This document shows, piece by piece, positions 51,433 to 64,000 of a DNA stretch of 64,000 nt. The position numbers and the translations under genes are program-made. Positions within the stretch are counted from its first letter, which is position 1. Every line of letters begins with the position of its first letter. This DNA is from Promethearchaeia archaeon (lineage in GTDB: Archaea > Asgardarchaeota > Lokiarchaeia > Sigyniarchaeales > SOKP01), in NCBI GenBank assembly GCA_029856155.1, contig JAHQWL010000023.1, positions 32,001-96,000 on the forward strand. Direction: 5' to 3'. Below the pieces are notes generated by a model that saw nothing but the letters and a program-made list of their open reading frames with translations, ran no database searches and was not told where the DNA came from.

Positions 51433-52578
51433 TTAAAAGCATCGATGGATAACTTGGGGTCCCATCTCCTTGTATTCTCTTCGAGTAATCCACATTCTAT
51501 GAAATGTTTTTAAGGAACTTAAGATAGATCCTCCTATCCACACAGAATACATTCTTTCTGGAGGAGCGATTATCTTTACATCTATAGATTCAGCAACCTG
51601 TTCTTTTATTTCTCGAGTTAAACGCTCTTTAATTCCGGGAAACATTGTAGAACCGCCTGAAAGGACAATATTACTATAAAGATCTCTGCGTAAATCTACA
51701 TCACATTCAGATATTGCTCCTACCACTTCATCATCTAGAGGAGCTAATTCTTTACCAATCACAGAAGGATTAAATAAGCATTCTGGAGCCAAGAATCTTT
51801 CAATCCCTATTGTGATAGTTTCACCATCAGGAAGCATGAAATTCTTTGCCATACCAGCTACCTTATTTGAAAGTAAAATCTCTTTTTCAGGATCAATAGC
51901 AACATAGCAAAGCTTTTCTTTTATTTCTCTTACAATCTCTTTCTCAGCTGATGTATAAAAGGAATATCCATTTTGACGTAACAATCTCTGTAAATATGTT
52001 GTAACATCCCTTCCAGCAAGATCAATTCTCTGGATTGCATGACTTAAAGCAAATCCTTCAAATATTGGTACTATATGAGCTACTCCATCACCAATATCGA
52101 TTACACATCCTGTTGTTCGACCAGAAGCGTAAAGTGATAATACTGCTTGAGTTGCTATATAAAGCGCCGGAACATTAAATGTTTCGAACATTATTTCTGC
52201 TAGTTTTTCTCGATTTGATCGAGGATTCAATGGAGCTTCAGTTAATAATATTGGGTACTCAGATGGATCAATTCTTAAATCAGTATAAAATGTATAATGC
52301 CAAATTCTTTCCATTGCTGGCCAATCTTCCACAACTCCATGCTCAATAGGAAATTGTAAATTCATTATTCCTTTTAATTCCATCGCTTCTTCACCAATAT
52401 ACCATTCTCGACTATAATCCTTTACATCGGGCATTATGTTTCCATATTTTGGTTTACCAATCACAGTAGGAAACACTGAACGTGGCTGATCTTCTCCTCC
52501 AAATCCATTTTTTGATATTCCGGTCCCATTATCTATAACAATAGCTCTATTATTTCTAAAATCCCCGTTGACTGAAAT
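51433..52578 (-). CDS. actin (Lokiactin-type); N-terminus extended to a probable ATT start
   Basis: The frame upstream of the called GTG encodes AIVIDNGTGISKNGFGGEDQPRSVFP. Also LLTEAPLNP, DIGDGV, IVLSGGSTMFPG, YSVWIGGSIL, HRCF. Confidence 0.95.
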   Translation of the reverse strand: MSVNGDFRNNRAIVIDNGTGISKNGFGGEDQPRSVFPTVIGKPKYGNIMPDVKDYSREWYIGEEAMELKGIMNLQFPIEHGVVEDWPAMERIWHYTFYTDLRIDPSEYPILLTEAPLNPRSNREKLAEIMFETFNVPALYIATQAVLSLYASGRTTGCVIDIGDGVAHIVPIFEGFALSHAIQRIDLAGRDVTTYLQRLLRQNGYSFYTSAEKEIVREIKEKLCYVAIDPEKEILLSNKVAGMAKNFMLPDGETITIGIERFLAPECLFNPSVIGKELAPLDDEVVGAISECDVDLRRDLYSNIVLSGGSTMFPGIKERLTREIKEQVAESIDVKIIAPPERMYSVWIGGSILSSLKTFHRMWITRREYKEMGPQVIHRCF

Positions 52579-52912: not shown

Positions 52913-53977
52913 CTATTTTTTTAGCAGATTTATCAACTTTTTTACTATTAGGTCCCCCATTTCTCTTGTTGTTAGTGTCTTAAAAGTTTTATTCTCAATA
53001 TCTATGGTTCTTCCTTCGTTAAGAGCCTCTTCCACAGATTTTTCAATTAAATTTCCAATTTCTGGAGAATTAAATGATTCCTGCATCATTAATTTTACAC
53101 TTAAAATAGTACCTATTGGATTTGCAATATTTTTACCAGCAATATCAGGAGCCGAACCATGTATAGGTTCATACATAGACACATTTCCTGGATTTATATT
53201 TCCACTAGCGGCCATTCCTAAACTACCAATAAGAAAGGCGCCTTCATCACTAGTAATATCACCGAACATATTGCCTGTAACTACAGTTTCGTAAGAATAG
53301 GGAGCACGAATTAGCCATTGACAAAAAGCATCGATATAGACATCCTCTTTCTCGATATCAGGATAATCATTTCCAATTCTATGAAAGATCGAGCGCCAAA
53401 ATTGACTTGCTTTTATAACATTTGCTTTATCTACAGATGTTATTTTCTTATGGCCATTTTTCTTCGCAAATTCATAAGCATATCGTATAATTCGTTCACA
53501 CCCCTTTTTAGTATAACGCATTACACTTTCTGCAATATCTTCTGATATTTCTCCTATTCCTTTATATATTCCTTCTGTATTTTCTCTAATAATGGTGAAA
53601 TCAATACCTTTTCCTATAAATTCTTCTTTAAGTGGGCATCTATCACGTATATGATCATATAACTTAATTGGTCTTATATTTACATATAGATCTAAATCCT
53701 GTCTTATCTTTAAGATTGCAGATTCAACAACTCCGGGGGGTAAATCAGGAAGTCCAATAGCACCAAATAATAGAGAATCAGAATTTTTAATAATCTCAAA
53801 TGTCTTCTTAGGAAGACTTTCACCACATTTTTTCCATACATTCCCTCCCGCGGGGGCATTTTTAAATTCAAAATCAAAATCAGTATACTCAGAAATTGTC
53901 TTTAGAATCTTTATCCCTTCTTCTACTACTTCTAATCCACATCCATCACCATGAGTGATGGCTATTTTTTTTACCAT
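52913..53977 (-). CDS. leuB: 3-isopropylmalate dehydrogenase
   Basis: GDGCGLEV, IRENTEG, VDKANV, NMFGDITSD, YEPIHGSAPDIAGK. Confidence 0.9.
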   Translation of the reverse strand: MVKKIAITHGDGCGLEVVEEGIKILKTISEYTDFDFEFKNAPAGGNVWKKCGESLPKKTFEIIKNSDSLLFGAIGLPDLPPGVVESAILKIRQDLDLYVNIRPIKLYDHIRDRCPLKEEFIGKGIDFTIIRENTEGIYKGIGEISEDIAESVMRYTKKGCERIIRYAYEFAKKNGHKKITSVDKANVIKASQFWRSIFHRIGNDYPDIEKEDVYIDAFCQWLIRAPYSYETVVTGNMFGDITSDEGAFLIGSLGMAASGNINPGNVSMYEPIHGSAPDIAGKNIANPIGTILSVKLMMQESFNSPEIGNLIEKSVEEALNEGRTIDIENKTFKTLTTREMGDLIVKKLINLLKK

Positions 53978-54495
53978 TATGATTCCTCTTCTGAATTAGC
54001 AATTTGTTCTTTGGCAAAATTTACGAGCCCTTGAAGTTTAATTATTTTCTGTAAAAAGGCTGGAAACTCACTAAAAGAATAAGATTGGTTAGAAGTTATA
54101 TTTCTTATTGATCCTTTTCCAAAATCAATATCTAACAGATCTCCACTATTAAAAGCATTAGTATCAGGAAACTGAAGAATTGGAAGTCCGATATTAATTG
54201 CATTTCTGAAAAATATTCGTGCAAAACTGGGAGCTATAATTAATTCTATTCCCGAAGCTTTTAATGCGATTGGAGCTTGTTCTCGGCTAGATCCACAACC
54301 GAAATTTGAACCTGAGACGAGAATCGTTGCTTGAAGATCATTTTTATTCTGATGAAACTCAGGATCTAAATCTTCCATACAATGTTTTGCTAAAAATTGA
54401 GGATCTGTATCTACTAAGTATCGAGCAGGAATTATAAAATCGGTATTAATATTTTCTTGAGGATATTTAATTACTTTTCCTTTTATTTTTTTCAC
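53977..54495 (-). CDS. leuD: 3-isopropylmalate dehydratase small subunit
   Basis: [40 protein letters not shown]. Confidence 0.92.
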
Positions 54496-54512
54496 CTTTT
54501 AAATTGAATTTT

Positions 54513-55787
54513 TTATATACTTTCTGGAGATGTAATAAAACCTTTTAAAGCAGAAGATGCAGCAATTACAGGGTTTGATAAATAAACTTCACTTTCCTTA
54601 TGCCCCATCCTTCCCATAAAATTTCTATTTGTCGTTGATATCGCTCTTTCACCAGGAGCAAGGATTCCCATATGTCCTCCTAAACATGGACCACAAGTGG
54701 GTGGAGATACAATCGCTCCCGCTTTAAGAAAAATTTCGATTAATCCTTCTTTAAGAGCATGAAATTGAATATTAGGAGTGCCTGGAATGATAATACATCT
54801 CACACTAGGGTGGATCTTGTTATTTTTCATTATTTTTGCCGCTATCCGTAAATCCTCCAATCGTCCGTTAGTGCAAGAACCAATTACAGCTTGATCAATT
54901 TCAAGATGTAAATTATGTACTTCAGATATAGGTTTTGTATTGCTTGGTGAGTGCGGAAGAGCTATTTGAGGTTCAATTTTAGAACAATCGATCTCAATGC
55001 TGTTATGATAATTCGCATTATGATCATTTTCATAAGTTTTATATTTCGAAATTCCTACATTTTTAAGATATTGTTTTGTAATTTTATCTGGAAAAATGAA
55101 CCCTGTTTTTGCCCCTGCTTCGATAGCCATATTACACATAGTAAAACGGTTTGCCATAGATAAGTTATCAATAATTTCTCCTGTAAACTCCATAACTTTA
55201 TACGTTGCCCCATCAACACCAATTTGACCAATTGTATATAAAATTAAATCTTTTCCTGAAACCCATTTATTCAACTGACCTGAATATATGAATCTTGTGG
55301 TTTTAGGTACTTGAAGCCAACATTTTCCGAGAACCATAGTCACACCTAAATCAGTTGAGCCAACACCAGTAGAGAACGCTCCTAATGCACCATATGTACA
55401 AGTATGAGAATCAGCACCAATAATTAATTCACTCGGAGATACTAGACCTTGTTCAGGAATAAGACAATGTTCAATTCCTACTTTTCCTACCTCAAAATAG
55501 TGTTGAATATGATACTTATTTGCAAAATCTCTCAAAATTTTACACTGTATTGCCGAAGCAATATCTTTATTTGGTGTAAAATGATCTGGTGTCAATATTA
55601 TCTTACTCGGATCAAAAACACTTCTTTCAGTTCCTTCAATAATTTTTTCGAAAACTTCTATAGCTTTTGGTGCAGTTATATCATTACCCAAACATTTATC
55701 AATATTTACTAAAACAAAATCTCCAGCAGAAAGATCCTTTTGATCGCAATGATCTCTTAAGATTTTTTCACTAATTGTTAAAACCAT
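54513..55787 (-). CDS. leuC: 3-isopropylmalate dehydratase large subunit
   Basis: GADSHTCTYGA, IGSCTNGR, CGPCLG, TNRNF.GRMG. Confidence 0.92.
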   Translation of the reverse strand: MVLTISEKILRDHCDQKDLSAGDFVLVNIDKCLGNDITAPKAIEVFEKIIEGTERSVFDPSKIILTPDHFTPNKDIASAIQCKILRDFANKYHIQHYFEVGKVGIEHCLIPEQGLVSPSELIIGADSHTCTYGALGAFSTGVGSTDLGVTMVLGKCWLQVPKTTRFIYSGQLNKWVSGKDLILYTIGQIGVDGATYKVMEFTGEIIDNLSMANRFTMCNMAIEAGAKTGFIFPDKITKQYLKNVGISKYKTYENDHNANYHNSIEIDCSKIEPQIALPHSPSNTKPISEVHNLHLEIDQAVIGSCTNGRLEDLRIAAKIMKNNKIHPSVRCIIIPGTPNIQFHALKEGLIEIFLKAGAIVSPPTCGPCLGGHMGILAPGERAISTTNRNFMGRMGHKESEVYLSNPVIAASSALKGFITSPESI

Positions 55788-55821
55788 AATTCTTAAAATC
55801 TCTATTTTTTATTGAAATTAA

Positions 55822-57444
55822 TTATTTTAATGATAGGCTTTTTTTCTTAACAATTAGATTTAGTCCTTTTATCAGAGATAAAACAGAACACAGAACAATA
55901 TCTTCATGAATCGCACTAGCTTTAACTACCATATTACTTTCAACATCCATGATTTCAATGGTAACATGCCCTAATGCTTCAGTTCCACCAGTAATAGCAT
56001 CAATTTGAAAATTTAAAAGTACAATCTTACTCATCGGTTTAAAGCATTTAACAATTGCTTTACAAGAAGCATCTACAGGACCTACTCCCGTTGCAGATGC
56101 TACTTTTTTTATTATATCTCCATTATTTTTGATATTTAATCGAACTGTTGATGTAGGTGTAACAGATCCAGTTAAAACAGTTAACTCCTCAAGCGTAACA
56201 TATTGTTCTTCTTTTGGTATTTCACCCAAAACATCTTTTACAATGGCTAAAAAATCCTCTTCAGAAACTTCATGCCCTTTATCACCAAGACTCTTTACAT
56301 GTTCCATTATTTTCGTAAATTGTTCTTCATTAGGTTTAATTCCTAAGTCATTAATTTTAGCCCTAAGAGCATGACCACCTGTATGTTTTCCAAGTTTTAT
56401 TGATTGCTTGATAATTGCTTCCACATTGTCAGTACGGTGAATTCCTATTAATTCTGGTGTAATGGGTTCATAAGTTCGTGCATGTTGAATCATCGCATGA
56501 GCATGAATACCTGCTTCATGAGCAAATGCATTCTGACCTATAAGGGGTTGTAATCGTCCAATTCTAACTTTTCCACCACAATAACTTTCTACTAATTTAG
56601 CTGTAGGAAATATTTTTGATGTTATAATATTCATAGGTATTTGGTATAAAGCATAAAGAGACATACATGTTTCTTCAAAAGATGCATTTCCTGCTCGTTC
56701 ACCCAAGCCCAAAATTGTTGTTTGAGCTTCAGAAGCACCATTTTCGAACCCAGCAATAGTATTTGCAACAGCAAGACCAAAATCATTATGACAATGGACT
56801 GCAATACGAATATTATTAGGTAAAGTTTCATAATTCTTCCGTATAATATATCCAAAAGCTACTGGAGAGATAGTACCTACTGTGTCAGGTATATTAATTC
56901 GTGTGGCTCCACTTTCAACGGCAGTTAGGTTAGCTTTAATTAAAAAGTCTAGATCTGATCTAGTTGCATCCTCAGCTGAAAATAATACTGTAGAATAATG
57001 CTCTTTAGCATAAGAGACGGTTTCTCTTATTCTTTCTATGACTTCATCTTTAGTTAATTGAAGTTTTTCTCTCATATGCAGTTCTGAAGTGGCACAAAAT
57101 AGATGTATACTATCCATATCTGCCTCTATAACTCTATCTATATCAGGTTTCGCTGTTCTAGCTAAACCCATCACTTCAGAATCTAAACCCATTTTTGCAA
57201 TATCTCTACAAGCTTCAAAATCACCCTGAGATGTTATAGGAAAACCCGCTTCTATAATATCGATTCCCAACTCATTAAGAGCTTGAGCAATAGATAGCTT
57301 TTCTTTATGAGTAAAACTTATACCTGGAGTTTGTTCCCCATCACGGAGCGTTGTATCAAAAAAATATGCTCTATCAGGGAGGATAAGTGCTCCTCTAATT
57401 TTTTCCATCATTTCGGAAACAGCAATATCGTTTTTACTTACCAT
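55822..57444 (-). CDS. leuA: 2-isopropylmalate synthase
   Basis: DTTLRDGEQ, HCHNDFGLAVAN, GERAGNA, AFAHEAGIH, regulatory domain G.GPVDA. Confidence 0.88.
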   Translation of the reverse strand: MVSKNDIAVSEMMEKIRGALILPDRAYFFDTTLRDGEQTPGISFTHKEKLSIAQALNELGIDIIEAGFPITSQGDFEACRDIAKMGLDSEVMGLARTAKPDIDRVIEADMDSIHLFCATSELHMREKLQLTKDEVIERIRETVSYAKEHYSTVLFSAEDATRSDLDFLIKANLTAVESGATRINIPDTVGTISPVAFGYIIRKNYETLPNNIRIAVHCHNDFGLAVANTIAGFENGASEAQTTILGLGERAGNASFEETCMSLYALYQIPMNIITSKIFPTAKLVESYCGGKVRIGRLQPLIGQNAFAHEAGIHAHAMIQHARTYEPITPELIGIHRTDNVEAIIKQSIKLGKHTGGHALRAKINDLGIKPNEEQFTKIMEHVKSLGDKGHEVSEEDFLAIVKDVLGEIPKEEQYVTLEELTVLTGSVTPTSTVRLNIKNNGDIIKKVASATGVGPVDASCKAIVKCFKPMSKIVLLNFQIDAITGGTEALGHVTIEIMDVESNMVVKASAIHEDIVLCSVLSLIKGLNLIVKKKSLSLK

Positions 57445-57494
57445 GTTTTTAACCTTTTATAATTTTATTTAAAATATATAGCCCTTATACTTCC

Positions 57495-57530
57495 AAGAAG
57501 AAAAATACGCTCTAGAAAGGAATAGGGCGC
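57495..57530 (-). terminator. hairpin plus U-rich tract in the leu leader (candidate attenuator)
   Basis: GCGCCCTA-TTCCTTTC-TAGAGCGT followed by ATTTTTCTTCTT, starting 1 nt after the leader stop. Confidence 0.55.
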
Positions 57531-57531
57531 T

Positions 57532-57633
57532 CTATAATAATAAGAGTAATAACAAACTCATTAATTCTAAAGGAAATAAAATCCTCAAACTTATTTTATA
57601 ATTAGAAATAAGCAGACTCTGAGTAAATTTCAT
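57532..57633 (-). CDS. leucine-rich leader peptide of the leu operon
   Basis: MKFTQSLLISNYKISLRILFPLELMSLLLLLLL* (13/33 Leu; last seven codons TTG TTA TTA CTC TTA TTA TTA); alternative start ATG 57561. Confidence 0.75.
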   Translation of the reverse strand: MKFTQSLLISNYKISLRILFPLELMSLLLLLLL

Positions 57634-57909
57634 TTTTTCTAATCCTATTAGAATTTATGATTATAAAAATTAATTGATTATAACCTTATAAATTTTTTTC
57701 TTACTCCGTTTACAGTCTTTGTAGAAGAAGTTTGAAATTCTTTTGAAAAAATTCTTACTATTAGAGAATTGCCAAAAATCCAAGTTTAGATCCAGAGATT
57801 GATGTTGAAATTCAAAAATTATTAAATGAATTTTCAAATAAAGACTCAAATCAAATAAATGAAAAGAATAAGGAATGATAAAAAATAGAGAGAACGTTTT
57901 TAAATCAAT

Positions 57910-58378: not shown

Positions 58379-59413
58379 TTAGAATCTTTTCATTTTCTTT
58401 GGATAAGATTGAAAAGGAGTACGCGGCTCTTCTGAAATCCATTCCACGTTTTTGTTTATATAGGTAAGTGATCTTAATAAGTCAAATGTTAACCAACGTG
58501 TAGCTTGTGGATGTGCTATATAATCCCATAATCCAAATTCTCCCTGCTCCGATTTTACAAATTCGATAAATTCAAAAACTCTATCATCATCTTGAGTCGC
58601 ACCTATTCTCCAACAAAGATTTAAGATATGAGCTATATCAAATTTAGCCATAAAGGTTATTTGTCCAATAGATTTTTCCAATCCAAGAAGACGTGCTATC
58701 GTGAAACCAAGATTACTTCTTAATTTAAGATTAGTTCCAAGAATTAGATCCAGAGCTCGTTTAGCTTCATTACTACTTTTTCGTTTAGGGTGATAAGCAA
58801 GGCAGCTAAGAACTGCTGTTGTATTAGATCGACAACCCCACCTAGAATGAGCAAGACGGCGATATCCAGCAATCCCTCCATAATTGCCTGCAGATAAACC
58901 AACAGGCCACGTACCATCCTCCAAACGCTGATCCATTAACCAATCAAATCCTCCCTCCGCCCTTTCATCAGTTGAATACCCACACATCACCAATCCTAAA
59001 AGCGGAATAGCAGTTTGAATGGGCATCATCTGATACCCAATCTCTTCATCAGTAAGCTGTTTCTTACCCGGCATTGGCCAAGACCCATCTTTCTGTTGTT
59101 TTGAAAAAATATAATTTGCAGCTTTTTGAACAACACCATGAGAAGAATTAAATCCGAAATAACCCAGTCTCTGCAATGCCATTGATGTTAATTGAATATT
59201 ATCATAAGATGTTAAACGGTTTATACCAAAAGAATCCCATGATCCATTAAATTTTTGGAGCGTGAATAATTCTCTAGCAAACAGATCTGATTCTCTCATT
59301 TGAGATAATTCTTTTACTTCATCTTCATCCTCAGGCAAATTTAACAATTCGGTTAAAACTAAATAGCGTAAACAGGGTGATGGATCAGTTAATAAAAGTG
59401 GAATCCAAGTCAT
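58379..59413 (-). CDS. prenyltransferase/squalene-cyclase-like (QW-repeat) alpha-barrel protein
   Basis: QKFNGSW, QQKDGSW, QRLEDGTW, QGEFGLW repeats. Confidence 0.7.
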   Translation of the reverse strand: MTWIPLLLTDPSPCLRYLVLTELLNLPEDEDEVKELSQMRESDLFARELFTLQKFNGSWDSFGINRLTSYDNIQLTSMALQRLGYFGFNSSHGVVQKAANYIFSKQQKDGSWPMPGKKQLTDEEIGYQMMPIQTAIPLLGLVMCGYSTDERAEGGFDWLMDQRLEDGTWPVGLSAGNYGGIAGYRRLAHSRWGCRSNTTAVLSCLAYHPKRKSSNEAKRALDLILGTNLKLRSNLGFTIARLLGLEKSIGQITFMAKFDIAHILNLCWRIGATQDDDRVFEFIEFVKSEQGEFGLWDYIAHPQATRWLTFDLLRSLTYINKNVEWISEEPRTPFQSYPKKMKRF

Positions 59414-59414
59414 C

Positions 59415-62400
59415 TCATAATCCTCCTTCTAACACATTTTTTATATATGGAGCAGTGGGGGTGTTCATTTTTGCTAATTCTTCCGGAGGACCTTTAGCAA
59501 TGATACGCCCTCCTTCTGGTCCTGCTCCTGGTCCTAATTCTATAAGCCAATCACAGGAAGCTAATACGTGTGGATGGTGCTCAATAACAATTACAGTATT
59601 ACCATTATCAACTAATAAATGTAATGTATCAATTAAATTAGACACATCTTCTAAATGCTGTCCAATAGTAGGTTCATCCAAAATATAAAGTGTTTTTCTA
59701 TTTGTTTTTTTGGATAGTTCCTTTACGATTTTAAGTCTTTGAGCTTCCCCTCCAGAAAGGGTGCGAGCAGGTTGGTTCAATTGTAAATATCCTAATCCTA
59801 CTTTTTTAGCATAAAGTAGTTTTAAAGCAATAGTTTCATATTCTTTAAATATTTCATGTGCTTCCTCAATTGTTAAATTTTTCACATCAGGCAAGGAAAC
59901 TCCACTGAAATGTACTTGCCAAGCTTCAGCTTGATAACCCGATCCTTTACAAGTTTCGCAAGTTTCAATGATGTCAGGGAGAAATTTCATATCTAATTTG
60001 ATATAACCTCGTCCCTTACAGACGGAACATCTTTTTTTTAATTTTTTTTCATCTAATCCTAAAATTCTTGCATCTTCACTCTCAGCAAATAGTTTAATTA
60101 TTGAAGGTTCTAATCCTAGAAATTTAAGAGGACTTCCAATTTTAGCCTTAGTTTGATCTATTAAAACCGTTTGAGATAATGTACCTTCAATCTTTTTATA
60201 TTTCCCTGGATCAATAGGTTCTCGAGATACTGAAGTTGTATGCTTTATAGGTACTAAGGCTCTTCCCAATGTATCAATTAATAAAGTACTTTTTCCTGAA
60301 CCTGAAACCCCACATAATCCTATTAATAAATTATGAGGAATCTCTACTAATTCACCTTTTAGATTATTTTCCTCTGCTCCAAAAATCTTTAGCCATTTCT
60401 TTGGTATTCGAGAATTTCTTGATAATTTAAATTTCTTTTTTCCACATAACCAGTCTCCTGTAATAGTATTAGATTTAATTATTTCTTCTAAAGTTCCTTT
60501 AGCTACGATCTCACCACCATTGACTCCTGCTCCTGGCCCCATATCAATAATATAATTGGCGAATTCCATAAATAGAGGATCATGTTCTATTGTTATAATT
60601 GTATTGCCTTTATCACGTAATTCCATTAGAACTTTTAATAATGCCATCAGTTCTGAAGGATGTAAACCCCTTGAGGGTTCATCAAGTAGAACAGTTAAGG
60701 ATGTTAAATCACTCCCTAATAATCCAGCTAATCGTACTCTCTGAGCTTCTCCAGCAGAAAGGCTCTCAGCAACACGATTTAAATTAATGTATCCTAGTCC
60801 CGTTTTGATTAGAAATTCTAAACGAGTTAAAATGATCTTAAAACTATTTTTCACAAATTCTGGTATATTATCTTCACCATTTCCATTTTTAAGAATTTCA
60901 AAGAGTTCCTTCAACGATATCTCGCACATCTGAGGAATATTATATCCATAAAGTGAGATAGCTAAATATTGAGGGCGTAATTTCATTCCATGACATTCAT
61001 CACATATCTCCTTATCTGTATATGTGCCTCCTACATCCCAATCTCTTAACCAGTGCTCATAAAAGCCTTGGAATTTATCTAATCTACTATATACATGTCC
61101 TTTTTTGTTTTCATATTCTATATCTAAAGGTTCTTTATCTCCAAATAGAAAAGCATTTTTTGCTACTTCTGACATATCATTCCAAGTTGTTGAGAAGGGA
61201 TCAAAACCATAACGAGTTGCGAGAGCTTGAACTATATAATAACCGTGATTATACGGCTTACACAAATATCCTTTTGGAAAAAATCCTGGAGAATACATTG
61301 CGCCATTACATAATGGTTTTTCAGGATGAATTATTAACTTATTTGGATTAGGAACTTGTGATGATCCTACTCCGTGGCACTTAAGACATGCTGCAGAGTA
61401 ATTTGTTGATATAAAATGCCTTGGATTAGCGAAAGGAATCGAAATATTGCACTCCATACAATACCATTTTTCCTCTCTTTCCATCCATTGATTACATTTA
61501 GGGCAACGAATTTTCCCCATATATGAAAAAATATTCGCTAAATGAAGTAAAATATCAGTAACTCTTCCTATAGTATTTCGAAGATTAAAATACCAGCCTT
61601 GTATTATTTTTTCTGGAATTATTAATGCCGTAATGCCTAAACCTCTAATATTTTCTACTAAAGCTTCAGTACTTTCTTTTGTGCTTTGTCTTTCATACAT
61701 TGACAAGGTTTCTAAATATCTTCGTCTTGCTTCTGTCTCAAGCGTATCCATAATCAGACTGGATTTACCTGATCCAGAAACTCCCGTAATTACAGTTAAT
61801 TTCTTTTTTGGTATCTCAACATTTACATTCTTTAAATTATGAATATGAGCGTTGTGAATGACAATTTTTTCTGAAATTTCGCTTTTCTGTTTTTCCTTTT
61901 CAATTAAAGGGTTAATATTTTCTTCTATTTTCAAAGCTTGAGCTGTAAGAGATTCCTCTACGTCTATAAACTCACTTAAAGGCCCTTGATAAATTATTTC
62001 TCCCCCTTTCGGCCCTGAACCTTGACCGAGGTCTATAATCCAATCAGCAGCTCTAATTATATCAATATTGTGTTCCACAATTACAATAGTGGCTCCAGAA
62101 TGAATTAATCTCTCTAAAATAGTTAATAAACCTGTTAAATCTTGAGAGTGTAACCCTGTTGAAGGCTCATCAAGAATAATCAATTGATCTTTTAAAGTTT
62201 TCCTTCCAAGGTATTTTGATAACTTAATTCGTTGAGCCTCACCCCCAGATAATGTTGGAGATGGTTGACCTAAAGAAAGATATCCCAAACCGATATCATT
62301 AAGAGCTTTTAACATTTGCTTTGCAGAATTAGTATCTGCAACAGACATTCTCTTTTCTTTATCAAAAATCTTTACAACATCTGAAATTGGTATATCATAT

Positions 62401-64000
62401 AATTCTGCAATAGAATATTCATTATCTTCAAATTTTACTTTTTCAGCTAGAATCTCTTCTGAAAATCTCTGACCATTACAGTCTGGACAGGTGATCCAAT
62501 TAGAGGGTAAATACTTCATCTTAATTTCAAGAGCACCCATCCCGTTACATGTTGGACATTGACCTTCTGGAGTATTGAATGAAAAATATGTAGCTTTAAA
62601 TTTAGTAGCTTTGGCATAGAGTTTTCTAATAACATCGGCAATATTGGTATAAGTAGCTGGATTTGATCTAGGATTTTTCCCAATAGGTCCTTGATCTACC
62701 ATTATGGGGTTCACTTTTAGACCATTAATTCTATTACAACCGATAGGTTCTTTTTGTTTTAATGAAGCAAACAAAACATCTTCTACTAATGTACTTTTTC
62801 CAGAGCCAGACACACCCGTGATAACTGTTAGACGGTTTAGGGGAATTTTAACATCAATATTTTTCAAATTATGTTTGTACGCTTTCTCTATTGTTAAAAA
62901 CAATTGAGGTTTAACTCTATGTTTGGGAATTTTTACCCGTTCTCTCAAGCTAAAAAACTTACCCGTGGGCGTTTCTGATTTCCATAACTCTGCAGGAGTA
63001 CCGGTAAATATTACCTCACCTCCTTCTCTTCCAGCACCCGGACCAATATCAATAACATTATCTGCATACATAGCAGCTTGCCGATCATGCTCAATATATA
63101 TTATTGGACCAGCAAGGTTCTGAAATAAGGGCAATAATCGTGCAACGTCAGCTGGATGCTGTCCAATTGTCGGTTCATCAAGGATATGAGTAATATCTTC
63201 TAATTCACTTAACAATGCAATGGCTAGTCGAACTCTTTGAGATTCTCCTCTAGATAATGTTGGTGAAACTCGATCTAATTCTAAATATTCTAACCCTACA
63301 GAATTTAATGCTATTAAACGTCTCTTAATTTCTTGTAATAGTCTAATTGTAATCGAAAATTCTTCTTTAGAGAAATAAGTGACTAGTTCCCCCACTGATT
63401 TTGTTAATATCTCGGGAAATAACATCCCCTCCCACGTAACATTAGATGCGAGTGGGTGATATCCAGTTTCATTACATTGTATACACCCTCTTCCCTTACA
63501 ATGGGGACAATTTTTCTTAAAATGTGTTGGTTCAAGCTCTCCAAACCAAGTGCCACATTCAACACATGCAGGAACTCGAGAAATAAGAGAATTCACTGAC
63601 TTTCCTTTAATTATTAACGAATTTGCCCCTAATGAAGAGATAGTTTTAACTATATCTCGGATCTCATTAATATTGGTGCTTGTGGTCACCTGACCTATTT
63701 GAATTTGAATATCATGAGGTTTTCTGGGATTTAAATTTGAAATTACGGGTTTTCCGTCCACCAAAATTGCTTCAAGGCTGAATTTCTTTTTTAAAAGCCC
63801 AATTAAGGTTTGATGACTCCCTTTTAATTTTCTTACTAAAAGAGCCGAAATTTTTATTGTCTCAATATTTCTTAATCCATCAATTTTTGCGATTATCTCA
63901 TCTTCTCTTAAAACAGACAATTTAGAACGGCATACAGAACATGTTCTATCGCCAAATCTAGCGTATAGTATTTTTAATAGAGGAATGAGACCTATTGCAG
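59415..64000 (-). CDS. tandem-duplicated UvrA-like ABC ATPase (5' end outside the window)
   Basis: Three GVSGSGKS Walker A motifs and four LSxGExQR signatures plus Zn fingers; the frame stays open to the window edge (...LYARFGDRTCSVC...). Confidence 0.88.
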   Translation of the reverse strand, partial: AIGLIPLLKILYARFGDRTCSVCRSKLSVLREDEIIAKIDGLRNIETIKISALLVRKLKGSHQTLIGLLKKKFSLEAILVDGKPVISNLNPRKPHDIQIQIGQVTTSTNINEIRDIVKTISSLGANSLIIKGKSVNSLISRVPACVECGTWFGELEPTHFKKNCPHCKGRGCIQCNETGYHPLASNVTWEGMLFPEILTKSVGELVTYFSKEEFSITIRLLQEIKRRLIALNSVGLEYLELDRVSPTLSRGESQRVRLAIALLSELEDITHILDEPTIGQHPADVARLLPLFQNLAGPIIYIEHDRQAAMYADNVIDIGPGAGREGGEVIFTGTPAELWKSETPTGKFFSLRERVKIPKHRVKPQLFLTIEKAYKHNLKNIDVKIPLNRLTVITGVSGSGKSTLVEDVLFASLKQKEPIGCNRINGLKVNPIMVDQGPIGKNPRSNPATYTNIADVIRKLYAKATKFKATYFSFNTPEGQCPTCNGMGALEIKMKYLPSNWITCPDCNGQRFSEEILAEKVKFEDNEYSIAELYDIPISDVVKIFDKEKRMSVADTNSAKQMLKALNDIGLGYLSLGQPSPTLSGGEAQRIKLSKYLGRKTLKDQLIILDEPSTGLHSQDLTGLLTILERLIHSGATIVIVEHNIDIIRAADWIIDLGQGSGPKGGEIIYQGPLSEFIDVEESLTAQALKIEENINPLIEKEKQKSEISEKIVIHNAHIHNLKNVNVEIPKKKLTVITGVSGSGKSSLIMDTLETEARRRYLETLSMYERQSTKESTEALVENIRGLGITALIIPEKIIQGWYFNLRNTIGRVTDILLHLANIFSYMGKIRCPKCNQWMEREEKWYCMECNISIPFANPRHFISTNYSAACLKCHGVGSSQVPNPNKLIIHPEKPLCNGAMYSPGFFPKGYLCKPYNHGYYIVQALATRYGFDPFSTTWNDMSEVAKNAFLFGDKEPLDIEYENKKGHVYSRLDKFQGFYEHWLRDWDVGGTYTDKEICDECHGMKLRPQYLAISLYGYNIPQMCEISLKELFEILKNGNGEDNIPEFVKNSFKIILTRLEFLIKTGLGYINLNRVAESLSAGEAQRVRLAGLLGSDLTSLTVLLDEPSRGLHPSELMALLKVLMELRDKGNTIITIEHDPLFMEFANYIIDMGPGAGVNGGEIVAKGTLEEIIKSNTITGDWLCGKKKFKLSRNSRIPKKWLKIFGAEENNLKGELVEIPHNLLIGLCGVSGSGKSTLLIDTLGRALVPIKHTTSVSREPIDPGKYKKIEGTLSQTVLIDQTKAKIGSPLKFLGLEPSIIKLFAESEDARILGLDEKKLKKRCSVCKGRGYIKLDMKFLPDIIETCETCKGSGYQAEAWQVHFSGVSLPDVKNLTIEEAHEIFKEYETIALKLLYAKKVGLGYLQLNQPARTLSGGEAQRLKIVKELSKKTNRKTLYILDEPTIGQHLEDVSNLIDTLHLLVDNGNTVIVIEHHPHVLASCDWLIELGPGAGPEGGRIIAKGPPEELAKMNTPTAPYIKNVLEGGL

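Follow-up and report, generated by a model that had tools for sequence, protein, structure and literature searches.

The locus described here raises the question of whether an archaeon can sense leucine through the ribosome that translates a leader peptide. Leader-peptide attenuation is a textbook form of gene control that relies on coupled transcription and translation, and Archaea couple the two processes. To our knowledge, this control is known only from Bacteria, and a full-text search of the literature turned up no publication on leader peptides that sense amino acids in Archaea. The window, that is the whole stretch of 64,000 nucleotides (nts) of lokiarchaeial DNA that was analysed, contains a leucine biosynthesis operon preceded by a small upstream ORF (uORF) that ends in leucine codons. 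We analyzed this uORF, the RNA around it and its counterparts in related genomes.

A poly-Leu leader ORF precedes leuACDB

The leader ORF (MKFTQSLLISNYKISLRILFPLELMSLLLLLLL*) occupies positions 57633-57532 of the minus strand, consists of 33 codons followed by a TAG stop (57534-57532), and is absent from the annotation. Its last seven codons (57555-57535; TTG TTA TTA CTC TTA TTA TTA) all encode Leu and form the proposed sensor, and a spacer of 87 nts separates the stop from the ATG of leuA at 57444. The first-pass annotation had described the 33-codon ORF, the seven terminal Leu codons and the 87 nts to leuA, and all of these coordinates were correct when re-read from the sequence. Its identification of the downstream operon was borne out by NCBIfam matches for all four genes, leuA (57444-55822), leuC (55787-54513), leuD (54495-53977) and leuB (53977-52913), which together span 52913-57444 on the minus strand and are the genes proposed to be regulated. 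The Shine-Dalgarno (SD) sequence of leuA, AGGT at 57452-57455, is located 8 nts before the ATG and is nearly invariant in the leader alignment. The uORF carries an SD-like AGGA at 57646-57643, within the 5′ arm of the helix described below as P0.

Boxes of the TTTATAA type had been placed near 57661 and 57686, and both were located, at 57669-57660 and 57692-57686. The box at 57686-57692 (TTTATAA), about 59 nts 5′ of the uORF ATG, is the probable promoter of the leader-leuACDB transcript, and transcription in the window would start near it. The second TATA-like element (TTTTTATAAT; 57660-57669), 27-36 nts 5′ of the ATG and kept in close relatives, may belong to the 5′ UTR or serve as an alternative promoter.

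As for the neighbouring genes, directly 3′ of leuB and on the same strand is an actin-family gene (51433-52476, minus strand) with weak NCBIfam matches to syringactin, crenactin, BeeR and MamK. Its presence, the 30% GC content and the relatives that were recovered are all in keeping with an Asgard archaeon of the Lokiarchaeia type. A VOC-family gene precedes the leader, and further upstream are ORFs of 344 and 1501 amino acids, both on the minus strand; the 344-amino-acid protein (58379-59413) has squalene/oxidosqualene-cyclase-like repeats and its gene adjoins the 1501-amino-acid ORF (59415-63920).

The Leu run is rare in the genome

Six-frame translation of the whole 4.1-Mb, 30% GC genome gave eight Leu runs of at least seven residues in total, and only the one in the leuA uORF both belongs to an ORF with an ATG start and is followed at once by the stop. 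The poly-Leu uORF is real and far from chance. For a screen without prior bias, 4707 small ORFs located 5′ of 3292 long ORFs were scored by the enrichment of any single amino acid across their last ten codons, and the leuA uORF ranked sixth. Besides leuA, the only top-ranking small ORFs before amino-acid biosynthesis genes were a Trp-rich one before a trpB2-type gene and a His-rich one before hisIE, both cognate, and the matches rich in Pro, Tyr, Phe, Thr, Val, Arg or Met had unrelated genes downstream.

Several other candidates were rejected as leaders. The top Trp5 match of the screen (C82:87036-87902, locus L075) arises from reading a Gly/Cys-rich ORF off-frame, and an Ile-rich uORF before ileS/valS lies off-frame within a zinc-ribbon gene. 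An Ile/Leu-rich uORF before a TPP enzyme gene, which served as a negative control, was conserved in none of 37 homologous loci. We note in passing that the product of the small ORF at locus L075 is hydrophobic in its N-terminal part and has a tail rich in Gly and Cys (..GGGGGGCDCSGCDCGDCDCS), and that several relatives in the family carry three to five tandem paralogous genes for TPP-dependent, acetolactate-synthase-like enzymes (for example G002:C9:65153-70534 and G082:C447).

Conservation of the Leu uORF among relatives

LeuA was found in 75 of the 154 genomes of the window's order and in only 19 of the 53 genomes of its own genus, and this distribution is patchy even though many genomes of the order are more than 90% complete, which suggests frequent loss of leucine prototrophy. 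In a search with this LeuA as query, the protein was not found in the majority of the other Asgard families sampled. The upstream DNA of the LeuA loci of the order was surveyed for the leader, with about 70 loci evaluable. Poly-Leu uORFs before leuA in relatives, which the first-pass annotation had named as a check, were found at 63 of these loci (60 distinct sequences) with both the Leu run and the frame conserved, a count that overstates independent support because the surveyed relatives are kin. These comprise every one of the 59 loci that could be evaluated in the window's family and four of six in a second family, which includes a closed 6.03-Mb genome, and the uORF is kept down to 63% LeuA identity. 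It is missing at four leuA loci of two further families in the order, and a sample of 20 leuA loci across other Asgard orders and classes gave no conserved Leu uORF.

The 63 uORFs are ATG-started, with a median length of 36 codons, and the distance from their stop to leuA is 82-101 nts nearly everywhere and 115-132 nts at a few loci. Family-wide, codons −1 to −4 encode Leu in 89-97% of cases, compared with a genome average of 9.9%, and the share is 79% at −5, 71% at −6 and about 50-66% at −7 to −13. Within the last 12 positions, 506 of 708 codons encode Leu (TTA 362, TTG 54, CTT 48, CTC 21, CTA 16 and CTG 5). This usage is the same as that of the genome, indicating no preference for rare codons. 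The Leu run survives synonymous swaps between TTR and CTN codons among relatives, and the first two thirds of the peptide vary freely. Taken together, these two observations suggest that selection acts on the Leu frame and not on a U/A-rich sequence.

Transcription of the leader

A TATA-like box is located 35-80 nts 5′ of the uORF ATG in 52 of the 63 leaders, and an SD-like motif 4-16 nts before the ATG in 49 of them. RNA data were available, as contigs only, from four metatranscriptome runs of one study covering a relative with a closed genome (G042). In three of the runs its RNA contigs start 28-35 nts 5′ of the uORF ATG, about 25 nts past a TATA-like box, although contigs cannot prove a transcription start site, and in two of these three runs the contig spans the uORF, the hairpin and leuA. 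The upstream gene lies on a separate contig and the promoter region is uncovered. In this relative the uORF is thus carried on the leuA mRNA. The first-pass annotation had stated that a transcription start downstream of the uORF would speak against its proposal, and the relative's RNA contigs begin upstream of the uORF. The contigs, among them one of 280 nts in run X3, and the uncovered stretches carry no information on premature termination.

A covarying hairpin follows the stop codon

In the window, the post-stop hairpin (57528-57481, minus strand) starts 4 nts after the uORF stop. Its base, P1, pairs GCCCU with AGGGC (57528-57524 with 57485-57481) in the minimum-free-energy fold, a pairing that is found family-wide, and in the inner stems 57519-57510 pairs with 57499-57490. 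The pairing of GCCCU with AGGGC had been put forward as an alternative to a local hairpin; it does exist, but as the base of the conserved minimum-free-energy hairpin and not as an alternative. The local hairpin itself (GCGCCCU..AGAGCGU, 57530-57507), proposed together with a U-rich tract, is present but confined to the closest relatives and is not the conserved structure; the U-rich tract is a run of five T in the loop of the conserved hairpin (57505-57501) that is likewise kept in the closest relatives only.

A hairpin of about 55 nts that starts 1-7 nts past the stop was found in all 63 leaders, with a mean ΔG of −19.6 kcal/mol and a mean z of −3.5 against dinucleotide shuffles. The window's own hairpin is among the weakest, with a z of −0.74 that is not significant alone, and the argument for it comes from comparison within the family. 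The arms are pyrimidine-rich on the 5′ side and purine-rich on the 3′ side, and their sequences vary by lineage: GCCCU/AGGGC in the window, and ACCUUCUU/AAGAAGGU, GCCUCUUAGA/UCUAAGAGGC and CCCCUC/GGGGGG in others. RNAalifold gave no structure on a MAFFT alignment of 60 leaders because the arms differ too much to be aligned by sequence, and a covariance model built from subclade R1 was dropped since it was too sequence-specific, giving weak and antisense matches in other clades. It was replaced by per-sequence folds and by pairing tests in which each leader's own arms were compared with arms of other species. The own arms paired better than the cross-species arms by 6.5 kcal/mol, and did so in 58 of 61 leaders. 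In a sequence-only MAFFT alignment of 15 leaders, 84% of the cells of the hairpin structure were paired, compared with 52-65% when the partners were slid, and none of 500 shuffles matched its covariation score.

A conserved oligo-U tract after this hairpin was not found in the 63 leaders, whose tails are mixed or A-rich; T runs of at least five anywhere in the spacer occur in only 19 of the 63, mostly inside the hairpin. An intrinsic terminator before leuA, in the sense of a GC-rich hairpin and an immediate U-tract, is therefore not a conserved feature of these 63 leaders.

Helix P0 encloses the start of the uORF

A second helix, P0, pairs the 5′ UTR, SD and AUG region of the uORF with codons inside it. 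In the window its 5′ arm (57636-57656, minus strand) includes the SD-like AGGA, and its 3′ arm (57562-57582) comprises the anti-SD UCCU and UUAGAAUU within the codons for FPLEL. The pairing explains the FPLEL/SLGLC motif that is conserved in the peptide. The window's duplex (57656-57636 with 57582-57562) has a predicted energy of −12.3 kcal/mol, the mean across leaders is −12.8 kcal/mol, and own arms again exceeded cross-species arms in 58 of 61 leaders. The 3′ arm ends about 27-29 nts before the uORF stop, and the gap between P0 and the post-stop hairpin is about 33 nts. As the two helices flank the Leu run, the run would lie in a single-stranded gap of about one ribosome footprint. The uORF, its Leu codons, both helices and the spacing are conserved, and P0, like the post-stop hairpin, covaries among the leaders.

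The alternative folds that the first-pass annotation had suggested fared less well: segments that would form mutually exclusive structures can pair but gain no support from covariation. An alternative fold of the 1:2 + 3:4 type had 81% of its cells paired, but 461 of 500 shuffles scored as high, and it showed no covariation. An ‘antiterminator’ A:C pairing between the 5′ UTR/SD segment and the pyrimidine arm after the stop, formed while a ribosome occupies the usual partner of that segment, was rejected for having no species-specific complementarity, and none was found among the leaders for the B:D pairing either.

Sequestering of the leuA ribosome-binding site gained no support either. The leuA SD (AGGT) lies 20-25 nts 3′ of the hairpin and outside it, and masking the 5′ arm of the hairpin left the accessibility unchanged: the predicted unpaired probability from the SD to the AUG of leuA was 0.68 when a ribosome was placed early in the Leu run and 0.65 when it was placed at the stop. 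Accordingly, no structure sequestering the leuA SD or start codon, as in attenuation by unmasking of the ribosome-binding site (the ermC or poly-Cys type), was found. A cmscan search of 57300-57900 with E up to 10 gave five unrelated sub-threshold matches and no match to the Rfam family Leu_leader (RF00512).

Trp and His uORFs precede their cognate genes

His- and Trp-rich uORFs before cognate genes, the presence of which had been proposed as a further check, were found at hisIE and trpB2. A Trp uORF of the form MATV..WQWPW.WQ* precedes trpB2 in 28 of 30 loci of the relatives. In the window's own genome, outside the window (C82:106679-108492, locus L079), it reads MATVRNFGWQWPWRWQ*, has 16 codons of which four encode Trp, and lies about 135-147 nts before a trpB2-type PALP gene. 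The last Trp codon of this leader is inside the 5′ arm of a covarying hairpin and the stop codon is in the hairpin loop, and a conserved U6 tract follows 30-40 nts later.

A His uORF ending in ..HHWLHH(K/E) or ..HLHHHQHHK precedes hisIE in 14 of 28 loci, at a distance of 75-87 nts from stop to gene (81-87 nts in 13 of the 14), a spacing of about 86 nts like that of the Leu leader. The copy in the window's own genome, again outside the window (C66:22307-23882, locus L083), ends in ..EDNHIMHHFPTHK*, 86 nts before hisIE. A strong hairpin begins at the stop codon of the His leaders, and the hisIE leader has a second short hairpin and a U3-4 just 5′ of a GGGG SD. That three cognate pairs, Leu with leuA, Trp with trpB2 and His with hisIE, share one architecture makes a sensory role much likelier than a function of the peptides.

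Apart from these, a Leu-rich uORF (MNSNKTALKMNLKEKISLVYLLAVLLLS*) ends 158 nts before a leuS-like ORF of 964 amino acids in the same genome (C102, locus L148), and a pyrimidine-rich tract lies 3′ of this uORF.

Proposed mechanism of leucine sensing

Judged from the comparison of related loci, the element is likely to be a leader of the leuACDB mRNA that acts in cis and senses leucine by ribosome stalling. Of the Leu-tRNA-sensing attenuation that was originally suggested, the sensing leader peptide is supported by the conservation and by the cognate Trp and His leaders; the classical terminator/antiterminator type gains no such support. Translation of the uORF, stalling of the ribosome and the output, in both its direction and its level, are what we infer from the arrangement, as follows.

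Transcription would start about 30 nts 5′ of the 33-codon uORF, which has its own SD, and a ribosome would load on the nascent RNA; later, P0 would close the SD and AUG against uORF codons about −22 to −10. The ribosome would then enter the last 13 codons, of which 50-97% are Leu depending on the position, in the gap between P0 and the hairpin. When charged tRNA-Leu is scarce it would be parked in this gap, and when charged tRNA-Leu is plentiful it would reach the stop, where its footprint would open the base of the hairpin, and then be released. Expression of leuACDB would thereby depend on where the ribosome stands with respect to the hairpin. By the geometry of the footprint, a ribosome at Leu codons at least three positions from the stop should leave the hairpin free to fold. 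For the regulatory sign to be correct, prompt folding of the hairpin must favour read-through. We suppose that the hairpin folding promptly behind RNA polymerase would favour read-through, while a ribosome at the stop would delay folding and favour archaeal termination, either hairpin-independent or of the FttA type. The self-closing ribosome-binding site of the uORF would admit one pioneer ribosome per transcript, which suits a co-transcriptional decision, and, given that the element is a sensor, we tentatively prefer a co-transcriptional output.

The same Leu-sensing uORF might instead act after transcription, with the ribosome melting the base of the hairpin when stalled at the final one or two Leu codons, or blocking 5′-to-3′ decay, and so raising the translation of leuA or the stability of its mRNA. 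Leu is kept most strictly at the last four codons (89-97%), which adjoin the hairpin, the last Trp codon of the Trp leader is in the 5′ arm of its hairpin, and the His hairpin starts at the stop; as the last cognate codons adjoin or enter the hairpin, a ribosome stalled there would open the helix, and ermC and the mycobacterial poly-Cys sORFs are bacterial parallels. However, the SD and AUG of leuA are outside the hairpin and their predicted accessibility is unaffected by masking of its 5′ arm, Leu codons −13 to −5, short of the hairpin, should be the first to halt a starved ribosome, and P0 closes the uORF SD on the finished mRNA and would starve a steady-state sensor of ribosomes. We therefore regard a post-transcriptional output as unlikely.

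That the uORF is a conserved element of the 5′ UTR with a general, constitutive role in translation or structure, or encodes a small hydrophobic functional peptide, with a Leu run that does not report leucine, is very improbable: the peptide is hydrophobic and could lie in a membrane, TTA is the commonest Leu codon of a 30% GC genome whose usage the run matches, and P0 partly accounts for the FPLEL/SLGLC conservation, but synonymous changes leave the Leu run intact where the N-terminal two thirds diverge, pathway and enriched amino acid agree in three independent cases (Leu-leuA, Trp-trpB2 and His-hisIE), the non-cognate matches of the screen precede unrelated genes, and the chance uORF that was tested is unconserved.

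Comparison with known leader peptides

The enterobacterial leader-peptide attenuators comprise leuL, trpL, hisL, pheL, thrL and ilvL, with Leu_leader (RF00512) as the Rfam family of the first, and hisL has seven cognate codons in a row. The leuA leader described here resembles them in having a short uORF on the same transcript, with codons for the end product clustered near its 3′ end, and a conserved RNA structure directly 3′ of it, ahead of the first biosynthetic gene; in addition, pairing closes its own ribosome-binding site, as is reported for the trp leader. It differs from them in its archaeal host, in having no Rfam match and no terminator made of a hairpin and a U-tract, and in that terminator and antiterminator alternatives gain no support from covariation. 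Another difference is that both the Leu run and the hairpin abut the stop.

In Archaea, transcription ends at oligo-U or by way of the CPSF73-like FttA, and RNA polymerase needs no hairpin for this. The output step must therefore differ from that of the enterobacterial attenuators, and this different mode of termination opens the question of whether, and how, Archaea read the position of a ribosome as a metabolic signal. A conserved set of leaders for three amino acids in the archaeal group closest to eukaryotes offers natural cis-elements with which the coupling of ribosome and polymerase in Archaea can be probed, and it flags functional small ORFs that gene callers miss. As at least one cultured relative has existing RNA-seq data, the question is directly testable.

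The nearest likeness beyond the enterobacteria is found in mycobacteria, where leaderless polycysteine sORFs are Cys-responsive attenuators that form the ‘ribulon’ (Canestrari et al., bioRxiv 10.1101/834739). In both cases runs of a single cognate codon stand in a short ORF before the matching metabolic genes, several loci follow one design (here Leu, Trp and His), and the proposal is that stalling of a ribosome changes an RNA duplex close by. Unlike the mycobacterial sORFs, which are leaderless, the archaeal uORF has a 5′ UTR of about 30 nts and a sequestered SD, and the SD of leuA is outside the hairpin. With chances that we put at a little below even, the order would run a ‘ribulon’ of leader-peptide sensors of its own, covering Leu/leuACDB, Trp/trpB2, His/hisIE and perhaps Leu/leuS, in which the position of a single pioneer ribosome is coupled to archaeal, hairpin-independent termination. 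Its design, of a kind that is not known from bacteria, would combine cognate codons at the end of the uORF, a self-closing ribosome-binding site and a covarying hairpin at the stop. If true, this ‘ribulon’ would give Archaea their first case of ribosome-mediated transcription attenuation.
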